A DNA stretch of 40,541 nucleotides. Origin: a virus. Position 1 is the stretch's first letter, and each line of letters starts with the position of its first letter. The position numbers were made by a program, and so were the translations under genes. Shown one piece after another: positions 2,452 through 40,541 of the stretch. The notes under the pieces were generated by a model. It made no database searches. It was not told the origin of the DNA and saw nothing but the letters and a program-made list of their open reading frames with translations. The stretch lies in the IMG/VR virus record IMGVR_UViG_3300043609_000044, positions 1-40,541 of that record; one strand, 5' to 3'.

Positions 2452-2735
2452 GACGCGCCGCGAAAATGGACACGTTCCACGCCACGGTACGGCAGCTCTT
2501 TCGCGTCCACGGCTGTCACTGGCGGGACACGCCACTCGGCGCCGGGTTTCCTGACGCGCTGGCGTGCTGGGGCGAACGGCTGGTGCTCCTCGAAATTAAG
2601 TCCGGCAAGAAGGCCGCGAAACGCAAAGGCAAAACCGCCGACGCGCAGAAAGACTTCGCGGACGAGTTCCCGGTACGCCGGGTGACGAACGAAGCGGACG
2701 CTTTGGAGACGATCGCATGGTTGAAACAGTTGTAG
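2448..2735 (+). CDS. VRR-NUC domain nuclease
   Basis: GFPDALACWGERLVLLEIKSGKK ... QKDF is the PD...ExK plus Q signature of VRR-NUC. GTGA-overlap start (alternative ATG at 2466). Confidence 0.8.
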   Translation: MRRAAKMDTFHATVRQLFRVHGCHWRDTPLGAGFPDALACWGERLVLLEIKSGKKAAKRKGKTADAQKDFADEFPVRRVTNEADALETIAWLKQL

Positions 2736-3400
2736 CCGCGCACGCCATGACGGACGGCCACGTCTTCGTCGAAGCCCTCGCACGGCGCCTCTGGCGGCCG
2801 GGTAGCGTGGACGTGGACGACCTGGTGCAAGACGGCTTGATCGGCCTCATGGACGCGGCCCGACGCTTCGACCCAGCGCGCGGGATCGCCTTCGACACCT
2901 TCGCCTACGCACGGGTCCGGGGGGCCATGATCGACAACTGGCGCCGAGCGTCCTGGCCGAGATCGATACGCCGCGCGCGCCGGGAGCTGGCCGCCGCACG
3001 CGTCCTGTTGCGCCAGGAGTTAGGAGCCGAGCCGACGGTGACGGAACTCGCCATGCGGACGGGACGGCCAGTGGTGAATGTCACGCGTCTCCTGCAGCGG
3101 ATCGGCCATATAGAGCAGCCTGATCCGCCGCCACCGGTCCCCACGCCAGACGTGCTCTACGCCGAGGACGAAACCCGCTCGCGGGTCCGGCGCGCCGTGG
3201 CGGCGCTGCCCGCCCGCGAGCGCCAAGTGGTGCAGGCGTACTATTTCACCGAAATGCGTCAGGCGCGTCTGAGCGCGGTCATGGGGATCACGCCTGGCCG
3301 CATCTCGCAGTTGCATACGCGGGCGCTCGGGCGTCTGCGCGCGGCCCTCACCGTTCCGCCGGAAGGTCTGGCGGCGGTCGTTCCTCCGAGTCTTGACTGA
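2717..3400 (+). CDS. Sigma-70 family RNA polymerase sigma factor (group 3/FliA-like architecture)
   Basis: Region 2: DLVQDGLIGLMDAARRFDPARGIAFDTFAYARVRGAMID. Region 4 HTH: LPARERQVVQAYYFTEMRQARLSAVMGITPGRISQLHTRALGRLR. Confidence 0.85.
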   Translation: MVETVVAAHAMTDGHVFVEALARRLWRPGSVDVDDLVQDGLIGLMDAARRFDPARGIAFDTFAYARVRGAMIDNWRRASWPRSIRRARRELAAARVLLRQELGAEPTVTELAMRTGRPVVNVTRLLQRIGHIEQPDPPPPVPTPDVLYAEDETRSRVRRAVAALPARERQVVQAYYFTEMRQARLSAVMGITPGRISQLHTRALGRLRAALTVPPEGLAAVVPPSLD

Positions 3401-18379: not shown

Positions 18380-19447
18380 TTACGGCTGAATACCGAGTTC
18401 GGCGGCTTTCTGCCGCAGGATGTCGGTGGTGGTCATGGGCGCCTGCGCGCCACTTTCAGCGGTGGTCCGTCGGGTCGGCGTGAGCGAGCTGTTGGCGGCT
18501 CGCGCCTTTTGGGTTTGTTCGTCCAGCGTCTGTTGTCGGATCTTGGTATCGCGGGTGGGCAGGTAGTGTTCGCGGTAGGCCCGGTTGTAGGCCTTATCGA
18601 GCGTGTACCGCTTATCGCTTTTCATGATGGCGGCGATCTGCGGACGCAACTGATCGAACGCTTCGTTCTGGGCGACTTCGGCAAAGTCCTGACGGGCCTG
18701 TTGGTCAATGCCGCCGAGAAACGCGCGGTACTCCTGCTGCTGTTGATACTCACGAAAGGGCTGAAGTTCCTTGCCGAGTTTGCCGTCGAGTTGGCCGAGG
18801 AACCACTGATCCCGCTTGGCTTGCTGTTCGGCGCTGTAGGTGTGGGCGATCTGCCCATTCTCCAGTTGGACCGCAATGTCGGGTTGGGGTTCGTCGGCCG
18901 GCGCCTGGCCACGCGGTGGTGTTCCACGTGGCACGCCGTTCTGTCCGTTCTGTGCAATAGGAACCAACTGCATTCCCATTTCCCGGGCGGTGTCGTGCAT
19001 GAACCGCACCGGGTCCGACGCCAGGGTCTTCAGCGTCGGCATGAGCGTCTGGAATTCTCGCGGCGTGAACTGCGACTTCAGGGTCAGCCACTCCCCATGC
19101 TCGTGCTCGAACGCCGCTTTGGTTTCTGCCGCGACCTTTTCACGGGTACGCTCCAGAATTTTCTTGTGGCGATCGGGCGGAATGGGGCCAACGACGGGCG
19201 TGGACAGGTCTGCGTCCGGGTCCGCTGCTGCCGCTGTCGGGGGCAGAGCCGAGTCAGGGGAACCTGGGGTGACGGCTGGCGGGGCCGCCGGAGTCGTGGC
19301 CTTGACGTCTGGCGTTGGGGCAGGTGTCGGCGTCGGGGGTGCCGACGCTTTCAGTGCTTCGAAGCCAGAGGACAGGGAACTGACGATCTCGCCGTGAGAG
19401 GACGGGGCGGAAGGCGCGGACGAACCAGTCGAGACGGTGTCTTCCAA
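18380..19447 (-). CDS. Scaffolding protein candidate
   Basis: Located just upstream of the capsid gene. Pro/Ala-rich N-terminus, charged helical remainder. TTG start preceded by AGGGAG. Confidence 0.55.
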   Translation of the reverse strand: MEDTVSTGSSAPSAPSSHGEIVSSLSSGFEALKASAPPTPTPAPTPDVKATTPAAPPAVTPGSPDSALPPTAAAADPDADLSTPVVGPIPPDRHKKILERTREKVAAETKAAFEHEHGEWLTLKSQFTPREFQTLMPTLKTLASDPVRFMHDTAREMGMQLVPIAQNGQNGVPRGTPPRGQAPADEPQPDIAVQLENGQIAHTYSAEQQAKRDQWFLGQLDGKLGKELQPFREYQQQQEYRAFLGGIDQQARQDFAEVAQNEAFDQLRPQIAAIMKSDKRYTLDKAYNRAYREHYLPTRDTKIRQQTLDEQTQKARAANSSLTPTRRTTAESGAQAPMTTTDILRQKAAELGIQP

Positions 19448-19519
19448 CGCACTCCCTGCCGGCGCTGTCGCGGGCCGGCCTGCGTAAGGGGGGTGTGACC
19501 TCCCCTGTCACGGGGGAGT

Positions 19520-19557
19520 GTGCGCCAGATATAGGCCAAGTGTCAAATTATTGACAC
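19520..19557 (-). promoter_or_regulatory. Late-operon head element, copy 1 (TGTCAA-N4-TTGACACTTGG-N7-CTG-N4-AC on minus strand)
   Basis: Inverted repeat GTGTCAA-atta-TTGACAC at 19540-19557. 17 of 21 core positions are identical to the copy at 25955-25992. Confidence 0.5.
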
Positions 19558-19613
19558 CAATGCGTCAGGTCTTTGGCAGTGACGGTGCTGGGAGGAGTTG
19601 GTAGGGTAGCCGT

Positions 19614-22321: not shown

Positions 22322-24327
22322 TAGCGTCCTCCTCCTATGGAATGGGAAAGTGCGTGCTGGTTGAGCGGCGGCTGTAACTGTGCGCTGCCGGGGTGGTGCG
22401 TGTCTGGCGGCTGTTGGCCGGGGATCGGCGGCGCCAACGGCTGGGTCGGCGTCTGCGCGGCGTTTAACAGCAACTCCGGGTGGCCGAGTTCGAGCGCCAA
22501 TGTCTGTTTCAGCGCATTCGGGTCGATCTGGAACCCGCTCTGTTGGAGCAGCGACACCACCATGGGGTTCGTCAGATCCTCGGCCTTGAAACTCAGCGAA
22601 ATGCGCGGCTTTTCCTGCGGCGGCGGCGGCGGATCTTGCAGGTGCCGCGTGGGATCTTCCCCGAAGGCGGCGTAGACGTCCTTCAACCCCTCTTTGCGAT
22701 CGTTGTACGGATCGTTGGCCGTGAGCTGGTAGCGGTCGAGCGCCATTTTCCGTTCAGCCTGCTGATCGAGGCGTTTGGCGCTGTCGGGTTTGACGCCGTA
22801 GACGAATTTGCCGGGGACGGACAGCTTATTCCACGCCTGCAGTTGTTTCGCGCCGTTTTGGCCGGCAATTTCGACGTAGCCCAGATCGTCCTCGAAGAGT
22901 TGAATGAGGCCGCCGAGCGCGGACACGATACTGACGAACCAGCGGAGCACCTTGTCGCGTTCCTTGTCGAGGCGAATATCCGTCGCCTGGTTCATGTAGT
23001 TCAACTCCGTCGCCGTCTTGCTGCCTTGCTCGGTAATGCCGGACTGGTTCTGGCCGAGCGCCCAGGCGCGATCGATATCGCGCATGGAAATGTCGGACGC
23101 GACGGACGTATCGCGCGGCAGCGTCGGGAGCGCGATCATTTCAATGAGTTCGTGCGGGGGGCCGTCGGTGAGGATGATCGACTGGACTTCGCCCTGTTCC
23201 AACTTCGCGATCGTCGCCGGATCAATGCGGTTCCTGTCCACGCCGCGCATGGGGAGCGCACGCCGTTTCTGCTGCATTTGGATCGTGCGCGTCTGGCTGA
23301 GTTCGTCCACGGCTGGCCGGGACATTTGGCAGTCGGACTTCGGGAAATGGCTGTCGGGGGTGTACCGGAGCGTGAGTACCTTGATCGGGAAGCCCTCGAC
23401 GCCAATGAGCGCGCCGGACTGCGGATCGACGCGCTGATACGGGGAATTCTCGTGCACGCGCGGGGTGTCTTCGTCTTCGACCAGGATCAGGTGCCGGACG
23501 AGGCGGCGATCGGTGACGGACGGATCGCAGCGATAGGCCCAGTACCAAATTTCCGTGACGGCCTTGCCGGGCCGGCCGACGTGGGTTTTGGACGTGTCGC
23601 AGAGCAGATCTTCGTCGTACCGGGAACCCTGATCCGTCGCTGGGGGGTGGACGTCGCTGAGACTGGCCAGTTCTTCGTCGCCGACGAACGAGCGAAAGCC
23701 CAGCCAGTCGGCCTGCTGATAGTTGGAGCGGATGAAGCCGCTCGGGACCAGCAGCTTGGCCGGGCTCCCGCGCTCAATATAGTAGCAACTGTGGCTGACC
23801 GTCGGCGCTTCTCCCAGCATGGCCGGCGGCGTGACGGACGCCGTGTAGCCGACCTTCACCCAGGCCACCCCGGCGGGACAGATCACGTCACTCAGGCATT
23901 CGTCCACGGCGGACAGCGCGTCGGTGTCGTCGGGGCCGAGTTTCTGGTTGAGCACGGCGTTGAAGATGGGGACGGCGGCGGCGCTTTCGGGGTTTTTGGC
24001 CGAGAGGACGACTTCCGGCACCTTATAGAAGAGCTGCGCCTTCTTCTGTTCGGTCTTCTCGTAGTCGATATTGACCTGCGTCGTCTCTTTCAACTCGAAG
24101 CCGTACGCGTGCTGATACCCACCCGTGTAGCGTTTGAGGTTTTCGCGCCAGTGGGGGAGTTCTTTCTTCAGTTCTTCGCGCGCCGAGGCAATTTCCCCGC
24201 GCCAGAACGTCAGCGACCCCACGCCGTCTTCCGGCAGCGGGAGGTGGAGCGGATCAGGCGGCGCGAGTTCGGGTGTGACCTGATCTGTCATACCGGCCGC
24301 GAGGGGATCGTCAAGGAGTTCAGGCAT
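22321..24327 (-). CDS. Portal protein
   Basis: 668 aa. Its start overlaps the terminase stop by 8 nt. Assigned by size and position between TerL and scaffold. Confidence 0.75.
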   Translation of the reverse strand: MPELLDDPLAAGMTDQVTPELAPPDPLHLPLPEDGVGSLTFWRGEIASAREELKKELPHWRENLKRYTGGYQHAYGFELKETTQVNIDYEKTEQKKAQLFYKVPEVVLSAKNPESAAAVPIFNAVLNQKLGPDDTDALSAVDECLSDVICPAGVAWVKVGYTASVTPPAMLGEAPTVSHSCYYIERGSPAKLLVPSGFIRSNYQQADWLGFRSFVGDEELASLSDVHPPATDQGSRYDEDLLCDTSKTHVGRPGKAVTEIWYWAYRCDPSVTDRRLVRHLILVEDEDTPRVHENSPYQRVDPQSGALIGVEGFPIKVLTLRYTPDSHFPKSDCQMSRPAVDELSQTRTIQMQQKRRALPMRGVDRNRIDPATIAKLEQGEVQSIILTDGPPHELIEMIALPTLPRDTSVASDISMRDIDRAWALGQNQSGITEQGSKTATELNYMNQATDIRLDKERDKVLRWFVSIVSALGGLIQLFEDDLGYVEIAGQNGAKQLQAWNKLSVPGKFVYGVKPDSAKRLDQQAERKMALDRYQLTANDPYNDRKEGLKDVYAAFGEDPTRHLQDPPPPPQEKPRISLSFKAEDLTNPMVVSLLQQSGFQIDPNALKQTLALELGHPELLLNAAQTPTQPLAPPIPGQQPPDTHHPGSAQLQPPLNQHALSHSIGGGR

Positions 24328-25981
24328 GGGCGGATCTCAGCGCGTGGTCGCGCAGTTGCTGAATGTCGTAGGCCACGGACCCCTTGACGGGACGATCGTC
24401 TCGGGTGTGACGCGTCGGAGAGGGACGACTGAGGCTCATATACCTGAGCATGTCGCTCCCGTGATCGTCGCCGTCGGTGTTCACGTCGTCGGCGTCGTGC
24501 GTGGACTGTTCCTGGATCGGCAGCGTGCGAATGAGATATTGGCAGCTCGGATCAAAGGTGAGCCACGGCGTGCCGTCAGGGGCCGCGCGCAACAGGTCAT
24601 GCACGTTCGCCCAGCCGTTTTTGCCGCGCTGGTTATCGGCCTTCCGCATGGGGAGGCCGGCGCTTCGGAAGGTTTCGACAATGGCCTTGCCGTGATCCTG
24701 GCCGGTTTTGTTCCACATGGACGGATCGGCGGCGCAGTAGCGTAAGCGGCCCGTCCCGACGAGTCGGCGTGTCGTGTCCATCATCTTCGCCGCGACGACG
24801 TCCGGTGTGGTTTGGGTGCCTTTCAGTTCACGCGCCATGTGGATGTGGCCGTCAGGCAGGCACGCGAACCAGCCCACGCAGTACGGTTGGTTGAACCCCC
24901 AGTCCATGGCGGCGATCCACTCGGTACCTGGCGGCACGTACTTCTCAGCGACGTGCCACGGCTGGCCATTCTGGAACGTCTTGAATTGAAAGAACGATCC
25001 TTCAAACACGCTCCAGTCGCCTTCCAGCAACTGCGATCGGCGCGGTTCCGGCATTTGATCCAGGTTGTCGCGGTAGGTGAGATCGACGTAGGGGTTGTCG
25101 TCCACCTTCGCTTGCACAAAGGTGTGCCACTCGGGTTTGAATTTGGGGTACTTGTCTTTGTCCGGTTGCTTCGTGATGAAGAAGTCGCGCACCCAGAGCG
25201 CGCCACGCGGGCCGGGGTTACTGGCGGCCCAGACTTTCGGCCCGCCGAGTTTCGCCACGACGTCCGGGTTCGACGTGCGCGCGCGACTGAACAGTTCGAT
25301 CATGTCGCCTTCGTCGTAGGTGACGAGTTCGTCGGGGACGATGACGTCGTATTCGCGCGAGAGGTAGCCTTCTTTCGCGACTTTGTCGTCCATGTGGCCG
25401 CCGACGATGGTGCTGCCGGTTTGCGGGAAATACATGCGGCGTTCGCCGCGGTTGTATTTCGCGCCGAAGAGCGGCGCGTCCCGTTCGAGGTGGAGGAGGT
25501 GCGTTTCTTCGAGATCTTTGTAGTTGGCGCGGATGATGATCGTGGAGAGGCGCCGCACACTCAGGCAGACGCGGTACAGGCCCCAGCGGAGAACGTGGCT
25601 TTTGGCGCCGCCGGCCGCGCCGCCGTAGAGGGTGCGGACGAATTGCCGTTGTGCGCGGAAGAATTCGACCTGGCGGGGCGTCGGGAGGAACACCTGGCGC
25701 TTCGTGTCGCCGACGGTGATCGCGATCCCCCACGCATATTGCTGCGCCGCGCACGCGGGGGTCGGACATTCCCACTGGCCCGAGGGAATTTGCGTGAAGT
25801 GCCGGCCGCACCAGCAGCAAGTGGCGTGCGGGTGCGACACCAAGGGGTTCGCGACGTGCGGTTCGGGCGGCAGGTTCGGCGGCGGCACCTGCGGCGCGGG
25901 GGGAACGGGCGGTTTCCAGCCCTTTTTGTGACGACCGGACCCCGTGCCTCCCACGTCGCACAGTCTACCCCCAAGTGTCAA
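24320..25981 (-). CDS. terL: Terminase large subunit with N-terminal zinc-ribbon extension
   Basis: Walker A YGGAAGGAKSH, Walker B YDVIVPDELV, C-terminal nuclease-like acidic residues. N-terminus CCWCGRHF...CPTPAC. The TTG start is uncertain. Confidence 0.9.
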   Translation of the reverse strand: MTLGGRLCDVGGTGSGRHKKGWKPPVPPAPQVPPPNLPPEPHVANPLVSHPHATCCWCGRHFTQIPSGQWECPTPACAAQQYAWGIAITVGDTKRQVFLPTPRQVEFFRAQRQFVRTLYGGAAGGAKSHVLRWGLYRVCLSVRRLSTIIIRANYKDLEETHLLHLERDAPLFGAKYNRGERRMYFPQTGSTIVGGHMDDKVAKEGYLSREYDVIVPDELVTYDEGDMIELFSRARTSNPDVVAKLGGPKVWAASNPGPRGALWVRDFFITKQPDKDKYPKFKPEWHTFVQAKVDDNPYVDLTYRDNLDQMPEPRRSQLLEGDWSVFEGSFFQFKTFQNGQPWHVAEKYVPPGTEWIAAMDWGFNQPYCVGWFACLPDGHIHMARELKGTQTTPDVVAAKMMDTTRRLVGTGRLRYCAADPSMWNKTGQDHGKAIVETFRSAGLPMRKADNQRGKNGWANVHDLLRAAPDGTPWLTFDPSCQYLIRTLPIQEQSTHDADDVNTDGDDHGSDMLRYMSLSRPSPTRHTRDDRPVKGSVAYDIQQLRDHALRSAHA

Positions 25982-25992
25982 GACTTTGACAG
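25955..25992 (-). promoter_or_regulatory. Late-operon head element, copy 2
   Basis: TGTCAA-gact-TTGACA at 25976-25991. On the minus strand it reads TGTCAAAGTCTTGACACTTGG...CTG....AC and overlaps the annotated TTG start of terL. Confidence 0.5.
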
Positions 25993-26027
25993 CGACAGCC
26001 GCGCGAGACGTTCGCTATCATGCGGCC

Positions 26028-26369
26028 ATGGCCGTGATGGTGGAGGAACTCTATGAAGCCCTGCGGTTAGCGGGGGTGCAGGACGGGGCCGCGAAAACGG
26101 CGGCCCGGGCCGTGCTCGGGGCCGATGCCCGCCACGATCTAGCGACGAAGACGGACGTGGCCGACCTGCGCGCGGACGTGGCCGACCTGAAAGCGGATCT
26201 GGCCGGGTTGCGGATCGCGACGAAAGGCGATCTGGCCGAAGTGCGCGCCTTGATGAAAGCGGATCTGTTGGACATGAAGGCGGATCTCTTGAAGTGGCAC
26301 GTCGGGACGCTCTTGGCGATCACGGCGATCTATGGTGGCCTCGTGTCGCTGCTGAAGCTGTTTGGCTGA
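26028..26369 (+). CDS. DUF1640-like coiled-coil protein with C-terminal TM
   Basis: Repeated DLATKTDVADLRADVADLKADLAGL heptads, then a hydrophobic tail LLAITAIYGGLVSLLKLF. Confidence 0.65.
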   Translation: MAVMVEELYEALRLAGVQDGAAKTAARAVLGADARHDLATKTDVADLRADVADLKADLAGLRIATKGDLAEVRALMKADLLDMKADLLKWHVGTLLAITAIYGGLVSLLKLFG

Positions 26370-26622: not shown

Positions 26623-26782
26623 ACGCCGTCTCGCCAAACACGCCGATCAACTCGCCGACCTCGAAGCCGAGATCGCGCGTCTCAAACAGCGCCATGACGC
26701 GGATCGGCAGACGTTCGTGGACGCGATCGGCACGACCGGCGGGAAAGCCACCGTGGCGACCACGAAGAAGAAGACGCCATGA
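26600..26782 (+). CDS. Small coiled-coil protein
   Basis: GTG start. LADLEAEIARLKQRH. Confidence 0.5.
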   Translation: MTNNDALERRLAKHADQLADLEAEIARLKQRHDADRQTFVDAIGTTGGKATVATTKKKTP

Positions 26783-27120
26783 CGGACGTGCCCGCGCAGG
26801 CGTTTCGGGAGGCGGCAGCGAAGGCGCAGTTAGCAGCGGCCAGATGTCGAGAGAGCAAGCGGTACTACGAAGAAACCTTGTGGAATGAACAGGCTGTGTT
26901 GCTCCTCGCCGCCGCCGAGCAGCGCGAGCAGCTCGACGCCGTGATGTACAGCGACGACCAGGTGATCACGGCGCTCCGCGCCGAGCGCGACCAGGCGCGC
27001 ACCGAGATCGCGCAGGCCGTGGCCACGATCCACGCCACCCCCCTCTACTGGTCGCAGGACGCGCTCATGGACGTCCTCGACATTCTCGCCCCCAACGACG
27101 CCCACCCGTCAACCCTTTGA
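26779..27120 (+). CDS. Hypothetical helical protein
   Basis: ATGA overlap with the upstream stop. Confidence 0.55.
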   Translation: MTDVPAQAFREAAAKAQLAAARCRESKRYYEETLWNEQAVLLLAAAEQREQLDAVMYSDDQVITALRAERDQARTEIAQAVATIHATPLYWSQDALMDVLDILAPNDAHPSTL

Positions 27121-27230
27121 CAGGTTCGCCAAAATAGGCTAGCCTGAAGCCAAGCGACAGCCACCCACCCTCCTGAAGTACAAGATCAAGATCTTCCGGC
27201 ACCTAGACGACGCGAACACCCGGTAGGGTT

Positions 27231-27372
27231 GAGCGTCGGCACGACCCTCCCCCGGGCATTGCTGCGGAGCAGCAAACTTCAGCGCGCACGGCTGCGCGGG
27301 GGGTAAGTGCCGCGCGTGGCGCGGCACGGGTAAAGCCCCCGCCGCGCCGGCCCAGCGCGTCGTCCGACGCTC
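27231..27372. ncRNA. Candidate structured RNA (closing helix plus three hairpins), family unknown
   Basis: 27231-27245 pairs with 27359-27372 (14 bp, one bulge). Perfect hairpins at 27259-27275, 27283-27298 and 27307-27327. No credible ORF. Confidence 0.35.
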
Positions 27373-27551
27373 TTGACCTTCGTTCCGTTCCGTTCTTCTC
27401 AGGTGTCAAAAAAAAACACCCACCCCCGTCTCGTCCCTGCCGCGTCCGCTAACGCGTCCGCCGCAGGCACCCCCCTCCGTGACTTAGGCATAGAGAAACT
27501 ATGCCTTCGCTCACACGGACCAGACGGCGCTCCTAAGAGCGTCGGCTGGCG

Positions 27552-27593
27552 CACACCCTGACCTGAATATCCAAACCCGGCACACACCCTGAC
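27552..27593. repeat. Two direct repeats CACACCCTGAC spaced 31 bp (iteron-like)
   Basis: Copies at 27552-27562 and 27583-27593. The second lies in a GGCAC...GTGCC hairpin. Confidence 0.5.
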
Positions 27594-27679
27594 GTGCCAA
27601 GGCCGGGGCCCGTGGGGCCCTGGCCGGGGGCCGTCCGCCGGGACGGCGGCCGGCGTGCGCACGAGCACGCGCGCTGCGC

Positions 27680-27720
27680 GTCAGAGTAGAAGAGAGTGCC
27701 TACTCTCTTCCTACTCTGAC
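27680..27720. terminator. Long hairpin (18 bp, one bulge, GCCT loop) at a convergent junction
   Basis: GTCAGAGTAGAAGAGAGT-gcct-ACTCTCTTC(C)TACTCTGAC. No U-tract, so its role as a bidirectional terminator is inferred. Confidence 0.45.
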
Positions 27721-27775
27721 TCCGTCTGATAATGGTCGTTATGCTTACACTGTCGAACCCTCGGAAACCCTTGCT

Positions 27776-28282
27776 CTATATGGGTTCGTGAGGGATGGCA
27801 GGTAGTAACGCGGGGTTATGTGTGCTGTCGGGGAGGGTATTCACGTCGATACTCTGCGTGCTATGCGTCTGGCGCATGGCTACCACGTCGCCAGAACCCA
27901 CAATGACCGTCACCCCTTGGTTCTGGGGGTCGGGTGCAACGACACCAACGGCGATGAGTGCATCCCGCATCGGACGGTGTTCGCCGCGCTTGGCCGCTTT
28001 GTCGAAGCTGCGAACCCAGTGTTCCGCGGCAAGGTGAGCATTCGCTTTCAGGACACCAAGGGCCGTGGTCGTCGTGGGTTCGCTGCGTCGAAGGATATCG
28101 ACGACGCGTTGATGGCTAAGTTTGACGATACGCGCGATTTCCGACGTGGACACGCCTTGGAGCTGGAGGCGGAGGACATGGATGACTTCGAGGCTAGAGA
28201 TACGCGTGTAGGGTTTGCGGGACGGCGGACGCTTGGTGCCGTATTTACCGCGATCTTCGCGTGTCTCGCTTGCCGCTTCCAC
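27776..28282 (-). CDS. HTH DNA-binding protein (regulator; small-terminase-like possibility not excluded)
   Basis: LQGVSTSEIARIVKLSHQRVVDILRR is a helix-turn-helix. GTG start. Confidence 0.65.
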   Translation of the reverse strand: MEAASETREDRGKYGTKRPPSRKPYTRISSLEVIHVLRLQLQGVSTSEIARIVKLSHQRVVDILRRSEPTTTTALGVLKANAHLAAEHWVRSFDKAAKRGEHRPMRDALIAVGVVAPDPQNQGVTVIVGSGDVVAMRQTHSTQSIDVNTLPDSTHNPALLPAIPHEPI

Positions 28283-28334
28283 GCGTGCATTGTCGCACGG
28301 GTCAAGTTTTTTTTCGTCTCGTCGTCTAAACCCC

Positions 28335-28371
28335 TTGACATCCTATAGACGCTGTCTGTAAGATGTCTGTA
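28335..28371 (+). promoter_or_regulatory. Sigma-70-like promoter with tandem TGTCTGTA repeats (early small-gene operon)
   Basis: TTGACA (28335-28340), 18-nt spacer, TAAGAT (28359-28364). TGTCTGTA at 28353 and 28364 overlaps the -10. A candidate divergent promoter lies on the opposite strand. Confidence 0.4.
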
Positions 28372-33057: not shown

Positions 33058-34128
33058 TCAGGCCCCCTTCTTGATCGGCGTCTTAACGAGGCGCATAGTG
33101 GGCGTCGGTGCGGGAGGCGTGACAGCCGGCGGAAACGCCGCATCCAGCGCCGACTTGGCCCGTGTGCTGGCCGCCGCCCGACTGTACCGCCATGTCTGCT
33201 GCGGCGAGGTGTGGAGGGCCAGTTCGGCCGCCCCCCGTTCATCGGCCGAGTTCTCAACGACGGTCGTGATGAACCGGTGGCGCAAATCGTACACGCGAAA
33301 CCGACGCACGCCAGCCTTGTCGCAGGCGCGGTGCAGGAGGCTGTGGAGCGCGGAGCCGCTAAACGCGCCCCAGGCGTTCACGTCCCGAAACATCTCCAAG
33401 GCGGTCACGGCCGCCGGACTCACCGGGACCGTGCGCGGCCTCGTGCCGCCGCCTTTCTTCCGTCCCGGCGTGGTCACCGTGGAGGTGCGCCAGTGAATAT
33501 CCTGGGGCCGCAGGCGCTTGAGCACCGCACTCGGCCAGCCGGTGGTGAACAACACGTGGAGACGCGCCTGGCTCTTGCTCGGCCCCTTCTTCAACTGCCG
33601 CAGCGCACCAAAGGCGGCCCGCACCACCTCCGGTTCGGGTAAATCAAGCGGGAGTTCTTCCTCGTGATACTTCGGCACGCCTCGTGCGGGGTTCAGGCCC
33701 TCACGGCCGTTAAACACCGTGTAGAAATCCATCAATGCCGTGCGATAGACATTCAGGGTGCCGGGTTTCTTGCCGGACTTGCGGAGAGCTTCCAAGTGCT
33801 GACGGACTTCTACACTCGTCACGCTGTCGAGGGTCCGCTGCCGCCCAAGCCGATCTCGCCACCATTCAATCCGATGCATCCGGTCGATCAGCGTCGGCAT
33901 CCCGGCTTTGGCTTTCTCATACGCTTTCACTTTCCCGCCAAACGTCAACGCCTTCTCAACTTCCGAGACAATGCCGACTTGCGCATTCGCGCGGAGGGTC
34001 TTTAACTCCTCGCGGAGCACCTGGATCGAGGTGTCGCCGGAGAAATTCTTGGAGACGAACTCGCCTTTGACGCGGGCATAAATTTGATACCCCGTCCCTT
34101 GACGGCGAATGCCTTTAGCAATCTTCAT
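33058..34128 (-). CDS. int: Tyrosine recombinase / phage integrase
   Basis: YDLRHRFITT and LALHTSPQQTWRYS (box II H-x-x-R and catalytic Y). N-terminal SAM-like domain. Start MKIAKG preceded by AGGAG. Confidence 0.9.
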   Translation of the reverse strand: MKIAKGIRRQGTGYQIYARVKGEFVSKNFSGDTSIQVLREELKTLRANAQVGIVSEVEKALTFGGKVKAYEKAKAGMPTLIDRMHRIEWWRDRLGRQRTLDSVTSVEVRQHLEALRKSGKKPGTLNVYRTALMDFYTVFNGREGLNPARGVPKYHEEELPLDLPEPEVVRAAFGALRQLKKGPSKSQARLHVLFTTGWPSAVLKRLRPQDIHWRTSTVTTPGRKKGGGTRPRTVPVSPAAVTALEMFRDVNAWGAFSGSALHSLLHRACDKAGVRRFRVYDLRHRFITTVVENSADERGAAELALHTSPQQTWRYSRAAASTRAKSALDAAFPPAVTPPAPTPTMRLVKTPIKKGA

Positions 34129-34257
34129 TGGTGTACACACTCCTGGCAGTTGCTTTCCGCTACTGTCTGTTGTCGAAGGGAAAAGGGTTATCCAGTCTTC
34201 TTGGCAGTCTTGAGGGACCACCGCATCAGGGCCGCCAGGGCGGCGGCTTGGGTCGTC

Positions 34258-34722
34258 TTAGGCCGTTTTCGTACTTTGCGGGTGTGCAAACTTTGAATCT
34301 GGAGATCGATGAATTTTGCGTCGCTTGGACTGACTGCGCGAATCTCGTTCAATTGCTGTATTGAAACTATTGAACACTTCAGCGCGCGCCGCCGGCTCAA
34401 GGTGTTCAGTGGCGAGGAGAGCGACATCGATAAACGCTTGATGGAGCGCTTTGAAGAGCGAGCTACGAGCGAGAGCTGAGCCATGTCGCCGGCCTTTCTC
34501 TAGAGGCAGCACCTGATCTGGGAGCAGAAACAGTTCTGCGACCGAGAGACCGAGCACCACTGCGATGGCGTCCAATTTATCGAGATGGGGTGTGGCGTCC
34601 CCACTCACCCAGGCGCTGACCGTTGACGGGTCCACCCCGGCCTCACGCGCGAGCGCAGCGGACGCCCCACGGCGCGCTCGAAGTTCCAAAAACCTAAGCT
34701 GCAACACGTCCTGTGCGGTCAT
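34258..34722 (-). CDS. CI-like XRE-family repressor (no S24 peptidase domain seen)
   Basis: ALAREAGVDPSTVSAWVSGDATPHLDKLDAIAVVLG. Divergent from the Cro-like gene. Confidence 0.7.
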   Translation of the reverse strand: MTAQDVLQLRFLELRARRGASAALAREAGVDPSTVSAWVSGDATPHLDKLDAIAVVLGLSVAELFLLPDQVLPLEKGRRHGSALARSSLFKALHQAFIDVALLATEHLEPAARAEVFNSFNTAIERDSRSQSKRRKIHRSPDSKFAHPQSTKTA

Positions 34723-35431: not shown

Positions 35432-35525
35432 ACGTGTCCGCTCGGCTCGACGTCGGCCGTCGCGGGTTGCTTCGCTTGCGGCGACCGTGGGACCGGCGAG
35501 TCGGGCGGCACAAACCGAGGAACTT

Positions 35526-37016
35526 ATGCGACTGACGCTGATAGACCTATCGAGTTTGGCTTATCCCATCTGGCACATGGCCGGGAACGACCCGAACGAA
35601 AACGCCGTGTCCGACCAGCTCGTGGCGCGCGTCCGTGCGCTCGGCGACGGCCACACGGCGATCTGCTGTGACGCCGGCCGTTCGTTTCGCTGCGATATTT
35701 CCGCCGACTACAAAGCCAACCGGAAAGTCGAGGAACGCGCCGTCCTGTACCACCAGATCGACCTGGCGCTCGACCGGCTGCGTGGGGACGGCTTTCCCAT
35801 TTGGTTCGCCAAAGGGTTCGAGGCTGACGACGTGATCGCGTCCGCGTGCAACAAAGCGGCGGAAGACGGCCACGACGTCCTGATCGTGAGTGCCGACAAA
35901 GACCTGCTGCAGCTCATTGTCAATGGCGAACCCGGCGCCGGCAGCGTCTGGGCCAAGTCGCTGAAAACCGGCGACCTGATCGACGAGGCCGCCGTCGAGG
36001 CGCGGTTCGGCGTCACCCCGGCGCAAATGCGCGACTACCTGACGATCGTCGGCGACCAGAGTGACAACGTCAAAGGCGTGGCCGGCATTGGCGAGAAAGG
36101 CGCGGCGGCGCTCCTGCGGCTGTATGGCTCGCTCGACACGATCTACCGGGACTTGGACACCCTGCCGCTGAAGCCGTCCCAGGTGCTCGCCCTCAAGGCC
36201 TTCGAGTCGCGCTTCCACGAAGTCCGCAGCCTGATCACCCTCCGCACCGACGCCCCGGTGCCGTTCGAGGAAATTCTGGAACCCCGCACGCCGAAGGACG
36301 TGCCGCCTATGGTGGACGAACCCGTTGACGAACCACTGGACGATATCGACGAGGCCTTGCCGACCGTGCCACCGCCACCCCCGGCGCCTGTCCCAGACCC
36401 GCCTGGTGCCGCTGTGGCGAGCGCAGAACCTGACAAGCCACCGACCCAAGCCCCAGGTGTCAAAAACCCGACAGGCGGCGTCCTGACCGTCCTGCCGCGC
36501 AACGGCCACGAGGACACCGACTGGAAAGGCCGGCTGGAACCCACGTCCATGGACGAGGCCATGCGGCTGGCGAAATTGGCCTTTGACTCGAAGCAGTTTT
36601 CCGCCTACGGCACGCCGCAGGCGGTGCTCATGACGCTCATGGCCGGACGGGAACTCGGCCTAACGGCCATGGCGAGTTTGAGAGCGCTTCATATCGTAGA
36701 AGGCAAGCCGACGATGAGTGCGGATCTCATGCGCTCCCTCGTGCTGAAGTCCGGGGCGGTGAAGTATTTCCGCTGCGTCGAACGCACGAACGAACAGAGC
36801 ACCTGGGAAGCACAGCGCGGCGACGACCCGCCCCTGTCGCTGACGTTCACGATGGAGGACGCCAAGATGGCCGGCGTCATCAAGCCCGGCAGCGGCTGGG
36901 TGAAGTTCCCGGCCGACATGTGTTCCGCTCGCGCCTCCTCGAAACTGGCCCGCCTCGTCGCGCCTGACGTCCTGGCCGGTATCTACCTGCCGGAAGAAAT
37001 TCGAGAGAACCAATGA
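35526..37016 (+). CDS. Fusion: FEN/Pol I-type 5'-3' exonuclease (N) + Red-beta/RecT-like single-strand annealing domain (C)
   Basis: N-terminal part: FRCDISADYKANR, GFEADDVIAS, IVSADKDLLQL, DNVKGVAGIGEKGAAALL. Pro-rich linker. C-terminal part: GRELGLTAMASLRALHIVEGKPTMSADLM ... GWVKFPADMCSARASSKLARLVAPDVLAGIYLPEE, similar to the Red-beta C-terminal signature. Confidence 0.8.
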   Translation: MRLTLIDLSSLAYPIWHMAGNDPNENAVSDQLVARVRALGDGHTAICCDAGRSFRCDISADYKANRKVEERAVLYHQIDLALDRLRGDGFPIWFAKGFEADDVIASACNKAAEDGHDVLIVSADKDLLQLIVNGEPGAGSVWAKSLKTGDLIDEAAVEARFGVTPAQMRDYLTIVGDQSDNVKGVAGIGEKGAAALLRLYGSLDTIYRDLDTLPLKPSQVLALKAFESRFHEVRSLITLRTDAPVPFEEILEPRTPKDVPPMVDEPVDEPLDDIDEALPTVPPPPPAPVPDPPGAAVASAEPDKPPTQAPGVKNPTGGVLTVLPRNGHEDTDWKGRLEPTSMDEAMRLAKLAFDSKQFSAYGTPQAVLMTLMAGRELGLTAMASLRALHIVEGKPTMSADLMRSLVLKSGAVKYFRCVERTNEQSTWEAQRGDDPPLSLTFTMEDAKMAGVIKPGSGWVKFPADMCSARASSKLARLVAPDVLAGIYLPEEIRENQ

Positions 37017-39616: not shown

Positions 39617-40541
39617 CGGACACACGCGCCGTTGAGAGCATTGTCTTTCGTGCCGATCTCTATCCTCGGATGGAGACGAGCGCCACGACGGTGCAGAAAT
39701 ATGCCGAGGATCTGGCTGTTCTCCCGCCGATCGAGATCAATCAACATGACGAACTGATCGACGGCTGGCACCGCTGGACGGCGCACCGGAAAACTAAAGC
39801 CGCGACGATCCCTGTGGTCGTCACGACAACCAGCGGCGAGGCGGAATTTCTCGAACTCGCCATTACGCGCAATGCGGCGCACGGCATGCAACTGTCCCAG
39901 GACGACAAGCGCGACATGGCCAGGCGCATCTACGGCGCAACCCCAGAACGCGAACGAGACGCCAAGAAGAAGGCGCTGGCGACCATTCTGAGCGTCAGCG
40001 ACCGCACAGTCCGCGAGTGGTTGAGCCGAGTGGATAAGGATGCTAAGGAAGCCAGGGACCAGAAAATCTTTGACCTCTGGTTGGCGTGCTCGACCCAGCA
40101 GGAAATTGCATCAGCAACGGGTATTGATCAAGGTGATCTGAGCCGCTTGGTTGCGACTTTTATGGAAATCGGCAACCTTGCCAAAAACCATAAAGCTACA
40201 GCCGAGCACGCGACGGACTTCGACCCCCCGCTCTACAACGTCTGGAAACAGCAGACCCGCACCGTCGGCAGCGCGCACTTTGGCAACTCCGAGGCGCGAT
40301 GGCTCGACAACCTGCTCTATCTCTACACCACGCCATTTGACGTGGTGATCGACCCCTTCGCTGGAGGCGGGTCCACCATTGACCTCTGCCAAAAGCGGTT
40401 CCGCCGGTATTTGGTGAGCGACCGGTTGCCCATCATTGAACGCGCCAAGGAGATCCGCCACCACGACGTCACCACCGGCCCCCTAAAGCCGCCGCAGTGG
40501 GGCGACGTGCGCCTGGTCTATCTCGACCCGCCGTACTGGAA
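39613..40541 (+). CDS. ParB-N (nuclease-like) domain fused to N6/N4 DNA methyltransferase, N-terminal part; continues at 1..470
   Basis: My own translation from GTG 39613 (GTGA overlap): IEINQHDELIDGWHRWTAH (ParB-like), an HTH-like middle, then VIDPFAGGGST (motif I). The ORF track omits it because the window ends before a stop. Confidence 0.85.
   Translation, partial: MTDTRAVESIVFRADLYPRMETSATTVQKYAEDLAVLPPIEINQHDELIDGWHRWTAHRKTKAATIPVVVTTTSGEAEFLELAITRNAAHGMQLSQDDKRDMARRIYGATPERERDAKKKALATILSVSDRTVREWLSRVDKDAKEARDQKIFDLWLACSTQQEIASATGIDQGDLSRLVATFMEIGNLAKNHKATAEHATDFDPPLYNVWKQQTRTVGSAHFGNSEARWLDNLLYLYTTPFDVVIDPFAGGGSTIDLCQKRFRRYLVSDRLPIIERAKEIRHHDVTTGPLKPPQWGDVRLVYLDPPYW
40415..40541. repeat. 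Terminal overlap, identical to 1-127
   Basis: Same as above. Confidence 0.95.

Follow-up and report, generated by a model that had tools for sequence, protein, structure and literature searches.

Here, we analyze a gene-free stretch of 655 nucleotides (nt), positions 27121–27775, in the DNA of an uncultured virus (IMG/VR virus record IMGVR_UViG_3300043609_000044, positions 1–40,541; hereafter the window, by which we mean this whole 40,541-nt stretch). Judged from sequence, the window is the genome of a temperate tailed phage that is without a cultured relative, and the gap within it appears to combine two modules, each conserved and independent of the other. Module A (27401–27775), next to the gene for a helix-turn-helix (HTH) protein, is a putative DNA site that we tentatively read as being used with this protein, most likely as a packaging (pac/cos) signal. 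Module B (27117–27400) is a candidate plus-strand gene for a structured small RNA (sRNA) of ~250 nt. Both parts are of known kinds, a packaging or regulatory site and a phage sRNA, and their sequences are new.

A first-pass annotation of the window had singled out this gap as its largest, free of genes and dense in structure, and had proposed a noncoding RNA (ncRNA) locus or a replication origin. The features it quoted are all present: palindromes AGGCTAGCCT (27136–27145) and AAGATCTT (27188–27195), an A9 run (27408–27416), and a long hairpin, given there as 18 bp, at 27683–27717. The gap begins one base past the stop codon of a plus-strand gene (26779–27120) and extends to the stop of the next gene. 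This right-hand neighbor is a minus-strand open reading frame (ORF; 27776–28282) with homologs in relatives (tblastn E = 4e-55, 53–63% identity), and the gap is therefore a convergent intergenic region; a plus-strand ORF over the same DNA (27818–28348, E = 7e-26), though longer, is a shadow of the minus-strand gene. Codon-position GC periodicity collapses between 27270 and 27660, and none of the four internal ORFs is conserved as a protein in relatives, in agreement with the gene-free description. The gap also holds 11 perfect stem-loop matches (stem of at least 7) in its 655 nt, the maximum in the window, versus a window mean of 1.2 (standard deviation 1.7), and both of its strands fold far more stably than dinucleotide shuffles (folding-energy z = −5.7 for the minus strand and −6.6 for the plus strand). 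Its rank as the largest gap holds on a crude gene map, in which small ORFs elsewhere are not all verified.

Ordered motifs of the gap are kept in 11 distinct uncultured relatives. Neither a conserved coding frame nor a lack of conservation among relatives, the outcomes named beforehand as fatal to the locus, was found, and the locus is therefore real. The proposal of an ncRNA is supported only for the left 40% of the gap, which has a conserved promoter and compensatory hairpins; the right 60% has no conserved fold. What the right 60% suggests is a protein-bound DNA site, a reading absent from the first-pass annotation.

The relatives comprise 12 uncultured IMG/VR loci whose large terminase (TerL) is 73–91% identical to that of the window, four metagenome contigs from the Joint Genome Institute (JGI), and several short contigs found through the HTH protein. 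Clustering left 11 distinct versions of the region following the HTH gene, plus partial ones; their overall identity is so low that BLAST aligns short pieces only. The long contigs were assembled as circles and are opened at arbitrary points. We considered contig ends as a proxy for virion ends and rejected it: a 39,225-bp contig is simply ~2 kb short, with ends that stem from breaks in the assembly.

In every one of the 11 distinct relatives, and in L160, a contig encoding a distant homolog of the HTH protein, the element occupying the gap sits downstream of the HTH gene and upstream of TerL. This position is constant despite differing content and orientation of the genes in between; the HTH-element-TerL synteny extends over L002–L012 and L160, with TerL following in every contig that reaches that far. 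The motifs also keep their order. Read on the minus strand, the element starts with a hairpin over the HTH stop codon, GTAAAC...TTATCAGAC, and two to four GAGTAG-type copies, and proceeds to a core composed of GGCGGAC, ~25 nt with a GGGnCCC dyad, CCCGGCCnTGGC, and then CAGGGTGTG. Variable hairpins, a second GGCGGAC, a G-rich run, a homopolymer, (CGGAA)n and GC hairpins follow the core, and the element ends with GCCCGGGGGG, a hairpin, AGATCTnGATCT, GCGCTGGGCGCCAGGCTAGC and a palindrome of the form TGTCAA-N4-TTGACA. Genes past this terminal palindrome vary in content and orientation among relatives. In the window, a 1.1-kb opposite-strand cassette lies between the gap and TerL (24320–25981, minus strand; PHROG 979, E = 2e-30); in L010, L011 and L160, the HTH gene, the element, small genes and TerL follow one another on one strand.

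The core of the window (27581–27640, minus strand) contains GGCGGAC, 25 nt with the GGGnCCC dyad, CCCGGCCTTGGC and CAGGGTGTGTG. It is ~80% GC, and 22 of its columns are invariant across eight phage versions and a satellite-like element described below. The distance from GGCGGAC to CCCGGCCnTGGC is 24–25 nt in the versions with both motifs. Closer to the HTH gene lies TTATCAGAC (27724–27732, minus strand), preceded by GTAAAC-type A-rich bases and near-invariant in 13 versions and L160; it may resemble an IHF site (WATCAR). The interval from TTATCAGAC to the first GGCGGAC measures 100–117 nt in 11 versions; L010 and L011 have a longer one of ~222 nt. Between the two, a GAGTAG/CTACTC inverted repeat forms the long hairpin (27683–27717), and relatives carry at this place two to four GAGTAG-like copies, mostly direct and often ~11 nt (one helical turn) apart, with AAAATTTT between copies in several of them. 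On the far side of the core, second and third copies of GCGGAC(G) occur within 27441–27463 (minus strand; direct repeat family D7), where CGCGTCCGC is repeated 12 nt apart, and a second GGCGGAC past the core is found in nearly all relatives and in the satellite-like element. The A9 run (27408–27416; T9 on the minus strand, where a G-rich run at 27417–27427 precedes it) is taken to mark the boundary between modules B and A. Relatives that extend that far keep a homopolymer at this position, which reads as T on the HTH strand in the clade of the window and as A9–A16 in L010 and L011.

Hairpin A (27764–27787), lying over the HTH stop codon, is a consensus hairpin in 13 sequences, with stems swapped among relatives (GAACCCTT/AAGGGTTC, GAAGCCTT/AAGGCTTC, AAGCCTTAC/GTAAGGCTT). 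RNAalifold returned no consensus fold for the GAGTAG segment, with an energy of ~0 on both strands, and a weak fold only for the core, equal on both strands. The fixed distances between motifs, the lack of a conserved fold, and a homopolymer whose polarity flips between clades argue for module A as a protein-bound DNA site rather than an RNA. Sigma-54 and DnaA-box readings of the conserved motifs were tried by inspection and do not fit. Searching IMG/VR with the pattern GGCGGAC-N22-27-CCGGCCnTGGC returned, beyond the known relatives, chance or coding matches only, and BLASTN of the gap and core found no nucleotide match in 50,697 phage records.

The most reduced form of the element is found in L160, in which the HTH gene is followed by TTATCAGAC, ~77 nt, the core, two small genes, and a TerL 75% identical to that of the window. 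This stripped-down element (L160 640–1100) spans ~200 nt and holds TTATCAGAC and the core only. From this minimal arrangement, the universally kept unit is TTATCAGAC plus the core, placed between the HTH gene and TerL. The L160 element is useful for defining the minimal functional unit.

Module B is headed by a promoter-like TTGACA-17 nt-TAGCCT of the sigma-70 type (27117–27145, plus strand), the sole zero-mismatch match in the window, which points into the gap and towards the HTH gene. Its −35 hexamer is the right half of the boundary palindrome, and its −10 hexamer lies within AGGCTAGCCT. Hexamers and spacing are the same in nine of nine close relatives, with a variable spacer sequence (L009 and L036 read CTGACA). 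Starting 7 nt past the −10 hexamer, the candidate sRNA would cover 27152–27400 on the plus strand and end at a pyrimidine-rich (GTTCC)n tail (27378–27400). The GTTCC pentamer occurs in two to six copies among relatives, with (CTT)7 in L002, like a slippage-prone microsatellite at the end of the module.

Within the predicted transcript, AGATCAAGATCT (27183–27194, containing AAGATCTT) comprises two AGATCT-type palindromes and two GATC sites, and AGATCTnGATCT is kept in most relatives. Hairpin VI (27208–27238) has an outer stem CGACGC/GCGTCG that is replaced in relatives by CGCGTC/GACGCG, CGATGC/GCATCG, CGCCAC/GTGGCG or CCGCGC/GCGCGG; four of its six pairs are changed on both sides, and 100% of the alignment cells pair. 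Hairpin V (27259–27275), TTGCTGC-GGA-GCAGCAA with a 7-bp stem and a 3-nt loop, appears elsewhere as TTCGCGC/GCGCGAA or TTCGTGC/GCACGAA, with five of seven pairs changed on both sides and 98% of cells pairing. The block between these two hairpins, CCCTCCCCCGGGCA (27245–27258; GCCCGGGGGG on the minus strand), has columns invariant in eight sequences. From the eight-sequence alignment, RNAalifold predicted 41 consensus pairs; compensatory changes occur in 16 of these, compared with 7.6 ± 1.7 pairs with two-sided changes in shuffles (0 of 500 reach 16). Cells of module B are paired in 94.6% of cases versus at most 53% when partners are slid, and three helices are well supported, including those at 27208–27238 and 27259–27275.

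Transcription of module B is a prediction that rests on the promoter and the covariation, because the hairpins carry no mark of the strand and a clear terminator is lacking. Weighing against it are the size of the alignment, in which the covariation comes from eight related sequences only, the absence of any intrinsic terminator called in the gap, and a strand assigned from the promoter alone, the hairpins being symmetric. Counting G-U versus A-C pairs as a guide to the RNA strand gave no decision: the supported helices are symmetric and the G-U-rich terminal helix is invariant. Rfam, which the annotation had proposed as a check, returned no family at gathering score; its E-value mode listed only mir-156 (23.5 bits versus 62) and RsmV (17.8 versus 100), and a tRNA/tmRNA scan found none.

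Several observations bear on how the two modules relate to each other. Module B is absent from L160, L010, L011 and the satellite-like element (the promoter is also absent in L010 and L011), and is therefore separable from module A. In addition, HNH endonuclease genes (~160–175 aa) occupy three positions in or beside the region in four lineages: past the homopolymer (L012 6903–7427, L006 1081–1605, L002 1186–1671), past the core (L039, from ~894), and upstream of the HTH gene (L041 1–243). These insertions split the region and destroy neither side, indicating that modules A and B would work independently. The inserted genes are probably homing endonucleases landing on conserved DNA; they may also have a role in packaging, as an HNH with terminase. 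No HNH pseudogene remnant was detected in the window (tblastn E ≥ 0.06).

The same divisibility speaks against reading the whole 655 nt as one large structured ncRNA, a new class of the size of ROOL, GOLLD or OLE. The strong folding z-scores on both strands, the several covarying hairpins and the conserved promoter at one end would suit such an RNA. However, module A is without a consensus fold, ~500-nt HNH genes are inserted at two internal places in relatives, L160, L010, L011 and the satellite-like element keep parts only, the homopolymer flips its polarity between clades, and no Rfam family matches. We regard a single RNA as very unlikely.

The core recurs outside the phages, in a circular-looking element of 4,963 bp (L032 1–5076, with a 113-nt terminal assembly overlap; the same element in L033 and L034). 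It encodes a P4-type integrase, a 211-aa HTH_31 protein, a 69-aa AlpA-like protein (a weak match, E = 0.002), a 426-aa DUF3987 protein and a 172-aa homolog of the phage HTH protein (P0009), which is 52–65% identical to the phage versions. Structural genes are missing, and the gene set is that of a satellite resembling the phage-inducible chromosomal islands (PICIs). The element's core lies in register in its main noncoding stretch (615 nt), upstream of the HTH gene, and is 57–71% identical to phage cores; the stretch also contains an A run and another copy of GGCGGAC, and a TGTCAA-like palindrome precedes the HTH gene. In the place where phages have GAGTAG copies, the element instead carries three iteron-like copies of the 11-mer CACGAGGGCCG. 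It was recovered from samples 3300043358 and 3300043612, which also yielded phage relatives (L006, L011, L012).

We therefore propose this element as a candidate PICI-like satellite of the phage family. Eight times 4,963 bp is 39.7 kb, compared with the phage unit of 40.4 kb, and ~6-kb satellites (PICMIs) are packaged as 8-mers in the capsids of their helper (PMC10803314). Copying or retargeting of a helper's packaging signal by a satellite is likewise known, as in pac mimicry by PLE (PMC11417361). Few integrative satellite candidates to date are as small as this element (4,963 bp).

In the phages, the element is always accompanied by the gene for the 168-aa HTH protein (27776–28282, minus strand), which is 46–63% identical in relatives. 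The family of this protein is rare: 5.8 billion proteins yielded 17 clusters at 90% identity, and a profile run against 1.84 billion proteins raised the number to 444 representatives, most of them 150–200 aa long and matching over the HTH and the C-terminal part. AlphaFold predicted a confident HTH (residues 30–67) and a long helix (71–99), and assigned the C-terminal part of the monomer a predicted local distance difference test score (pLDDT) below 50, though this part is the most conserved (85–133) and holds most of the invariant residues. Sequence searches of the protein against Pfam, PHROGs and PDB returned generic transcription-factor-type HTH families only, and neither the protein nor its alignment revealed a prophage in 185,579 GTDB species genomes. 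Among the top fold matches from Foldseek are the small terminases (TerS) of G20c and P74-26, which are not significant (E = 0.3 for G20c). The predicted layout, an N-terminal HTH, a long helix and a conserved C-terminal part, may nevertheless be in general that of a small terminase.

A packaging signal is the simplest account of module A because the site travels with the HTH protein, precedes the terminase gene, and has its core copied by a minimal satellite. As expected of such a signal, the site is always found between the HTH gene and TerL (11 relatives and L160), and its core is carried by a PICI-like satellite that is a candidate for helper dependence. In the mechanism we envisage, the HTH protein would be the DNA-recognition, small-terminase-like subunit and would bind module A at the phased GAGTAG copies, at TTATCAGAC, or at both, and the GC-rich, partly dyad-symmetric core with its fixed spacing would be the place of terminase action. 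Since the satellite carries its own HTH homolog together with the same core, it could be packaged by the phage motor. Module B would be a separate plus-strand RNA gene, transcribed towards the HTH gene.

A number of observations weigh against packaging and keep our reading tentative. The HTH protein has no significant match to small terminases by sequence or by fold, although such a match would be expected of a TerS, and its remote relatives carry no functional label. In the window, the opposite-strand cassette of 1.1 kb separates the gap from TerL. Module A, at ~375 nt, is longer than most described pac/cos sites, and neither L160 nor the satellite has GAGTAG copies. All long contigs, being circular assemblies broken at arbitrary points, are silent on genome ends. 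Lastly, the HTH protein could be a transcription factor, given the TGT-N10-ACA palindromes at 19541 and in the upstream regions of TerL, of its own gene and of the satellite HTH gene.

We also entertain, as a distinctly unlikely extension of the packaging model, that phages and satellite share a swappable packaging module made of a recognition protein and a GC-rich core, in which the satellite's own HTH protein and repeats steer the helper terminase, the satellite is packaged as 8-mers, and the ~250-nt RNA controls the module.

The palindromes introduce the alternative that we take most seriously after packaging, and which we nonetheless consider rather unlikely: that the region controls late transcription, with the HTH protein as a late-gene activator or antiterminator and module A as its binding sites and leader. 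Lambda Q with pR'/qut/6S, P2 Ogr and P4 delta, and Mu Mor/C are models for such control, and the satellite homolog would switch on, or be switched on by, the late genes of the helper. The element's left edge is itself a palindrome of this family (CGTCAACCCTTTGACA, 27107–27122, overlapping the stop of 26779–27120), and TGTCAA-N4-TTGACA closes the element in nine relatives. The window holds five matches versus 0.85 expected, at 19541, 25976, 27107, 28325 and 36458; that at 25976–25991 lies between TerL and a divergent gene, and others include 19541–19556 and 28325–28340, the latter in the upstream region of the HTH gene. A conserved CTTGG-N2-3-TAnAnT follows the palindrome upstream of TerL and at 19541 (minus strand). 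The palindrome may serve a phage regulator as its operator or be recognized by the phage sigma factor, and its presence at 19541 and upstream of TerL, the HTH gene and the satellite HTH gene counts in favor of late control.

Also in favor are the co-linear order of HTH gene, element, small genes and TerL in L160, L010 and L011, the transcription-factor-type HTH families that make up all database matches of the protein, and a weak promoter-like match directly past the HTH stop, overlapping TTATCAGAC (27724–27732). However, the hexamers of this match are not conserved, only TTATCAGAC is; the neighboring genes face the element in the window and in most relatives, so that read-through would be antisense; TerL has its own conserved upstream motif; and the core fits no promoter consensus that we tried. 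Late control also leaves the satellite's need for the core itself unexplained, and so accounts less well for the shared core than packaging does.

Two further features of these palindromes deserve mention. TerL and the gene at 25944–26369 seem to start 7 nt past a −10-like hexamer and would therefore be leaderless. Downstream of the palindrome at 19541, the segment 19475–19535 (minus strand) contains a GC hairpin, CACACTCCCCCGTGACAGGGGAGGTCACACCCCCC, that recurs at the matching place in L009 and L008 and may be a conserved leader structure; it falls within the other long stretch of low codon periodicity in the window (19200–19605). The cassette between gap and TerL is likewise bounded by two palindromes; it is mosaic, and its orientation varies among relatives. 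In L024, the homolog of the left-hand gene 26779–27120 (~873–1260) has the opposite orientation and lies on the same strand as the HTH gene. We rejected the idea that the cassette undergoes programmed inversion at its two bounding palindromes: no invertase is present, and the L024 arrangement, with this homolog facing the other way, is not one that a whole-cassette flip would yield. The protein encoded by 26779–27120 found no relative in IMG/VR.

The proposal of a replication origin, which the first-pass annotation had raised, fared worse, and we see only a slim chance of it. Here the GAGTAG copies would be iterons, the HTH protein an initiator, and transcription from the flanking promoter would prime or activate replication, with the satellite sharing the origin core. 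The annotation had recognized no replicase, helicase or primase; this holds for the ORFs that we scanned, among which no initiator, helicase or primase was recognized, and the phage must then depend on its host and on a site acting in cis. The gap's repeated motifs, its homopolymer run and its many inverted repeats would be at home in an origin, and in the satellite, which replicates with a DUF3987 protein, the core lies in the main noncoding stretch. Nonetheless, the gap has no AT-rich unwinding stretch: it is 50–80% GC in 100-nt windows and 65% overall, compared with 64% for the genome, the core reaches ~80%, and A/T features are limited to the A9 run and, in some relatives, AAAATTTT. There is no cluster of DnaA boxes in the gap, the single 1-mismatch box of the whole window lying at 40029, and cumulative GC skew rises from ~8 kb to ~32 kb with a mere local dip at 27–28 kb rather than a switch. 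The gap sits at the border of the packaging and structural genes, beside the terminase module and not a replication gene, far from the recombination and early genes, and the satellite's distinct 11-mer repeats are better iteron candidates.

It is scarcely credible, finally, that the gap is a mere convergent spacer made of terminator hairpins and a decayed lost gene such as an HNH, a view to which the converging flanks, the frequency of GC-rich hairpins as terminators in GC-rich genomes and the HNH genes in the same region of relatives would point: the window has no trace of an HNH protein, ordered motifs and spacings are kept where TerL is just 73–78% identical and the flanking genes differ, the same hairpins occur where the neighbors do not converge (L022, L024), and the core recurs in an unrelated mobile element.

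An exact 127-nt direct terminal repeat (1–127 = 40415–40541) identifies the window as a circular assembly with an arbitrary start point and a unit of 40,414 bp. Besides TerL, which is at most 32% identical to those of cultured phages, it encodes a tyrosine integrase (33058–34221), a CI-type repressor (34258–34722), a sigma-70-family protein (2717–3400), a PAPS-reductase-like protein and a C5 methylase. In a single 509-aa ORF (35487–37016), a 5'-3' exonuclease with FEN-type N-terminal and SAM-fold domains is fused to an annealing domain like that of RecT, an unusual union of both recombination partners.

If module A is a packaging signal, it would fix where genomes end or packaging starts in an uncultured family of soil phages, and its core would serve as a sequence handle for finding satellites that exploit them. 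The conserved core with differing flanking repeats would then be a compact natural case of redirected packaging specificity. Module B, if true, would be a new phage sRNA whose promoter is well defined and whose hairpins can be tested. These findings leave current ideas standing; the value of the region is that of a clear, testable locus in phages without a cultured relative.

Known phage loci offer several points of comparison. Like the lambda Q/pR'/6S RNA/tR' region, the gap is a structured gene-free stretch directly past a small regulator-like gene and, in the co-linear relatives, ahead of late genes. Unlike that region, it has no conserved promoter past the HTH gene, the HTH protein is without similarity to Q, and the next genes mostly face the element. 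Lambda OOP RNA and P22 sar are phage sRNAs transcribed convergently to a regulatory gene; module B is similarly intergenic, structured and short, with its own promoter aimed at the 3' end of the neighboring gene. It differs from both in its length of ~250 nt, which is much greater, in having no identified terminator and no Rfam match, and in a predicted end short of the HTH coding region.

For module A, the closest parallels are packaging sites. The lambda cos region consists of cosQ-cosN-cosB with R sites for gpNu1 and an IHF site, and SPP1 and P1 have pac regions. Unlike these, the phage site described here comes after the HTH gene; module A is also longer than most described sites, the HTH protein is not recognizable as a TerS, and no cultured phage shows similarity in sequence. 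The likenesses are those of organization: a noncoding array beside the gene for a small HTH recognition protein and near the large terminase, with repeated short sites, a possible bend (the A/T run and AAAATTTT), a partly dyad core and fixed spacing. In the satellite, the order of core and then HTH gene is also that of lambda cos and then Nu1.

Satellites that redirect the packaging of their helpers include those using SaPI TerS and the cos-type PICIs. The 4,963-bp element differs from such satellites in being known from metagenome contigs alone, and from PICMIs, which have no terS-like gene (PMC10803314), in carrying an HTH homolog. It resembles packaging-mimic satellites in being a very small integrative element that combines a homolog of a phage protein with the core of the phage, and in a length of which eight copies come to about one phage genome.

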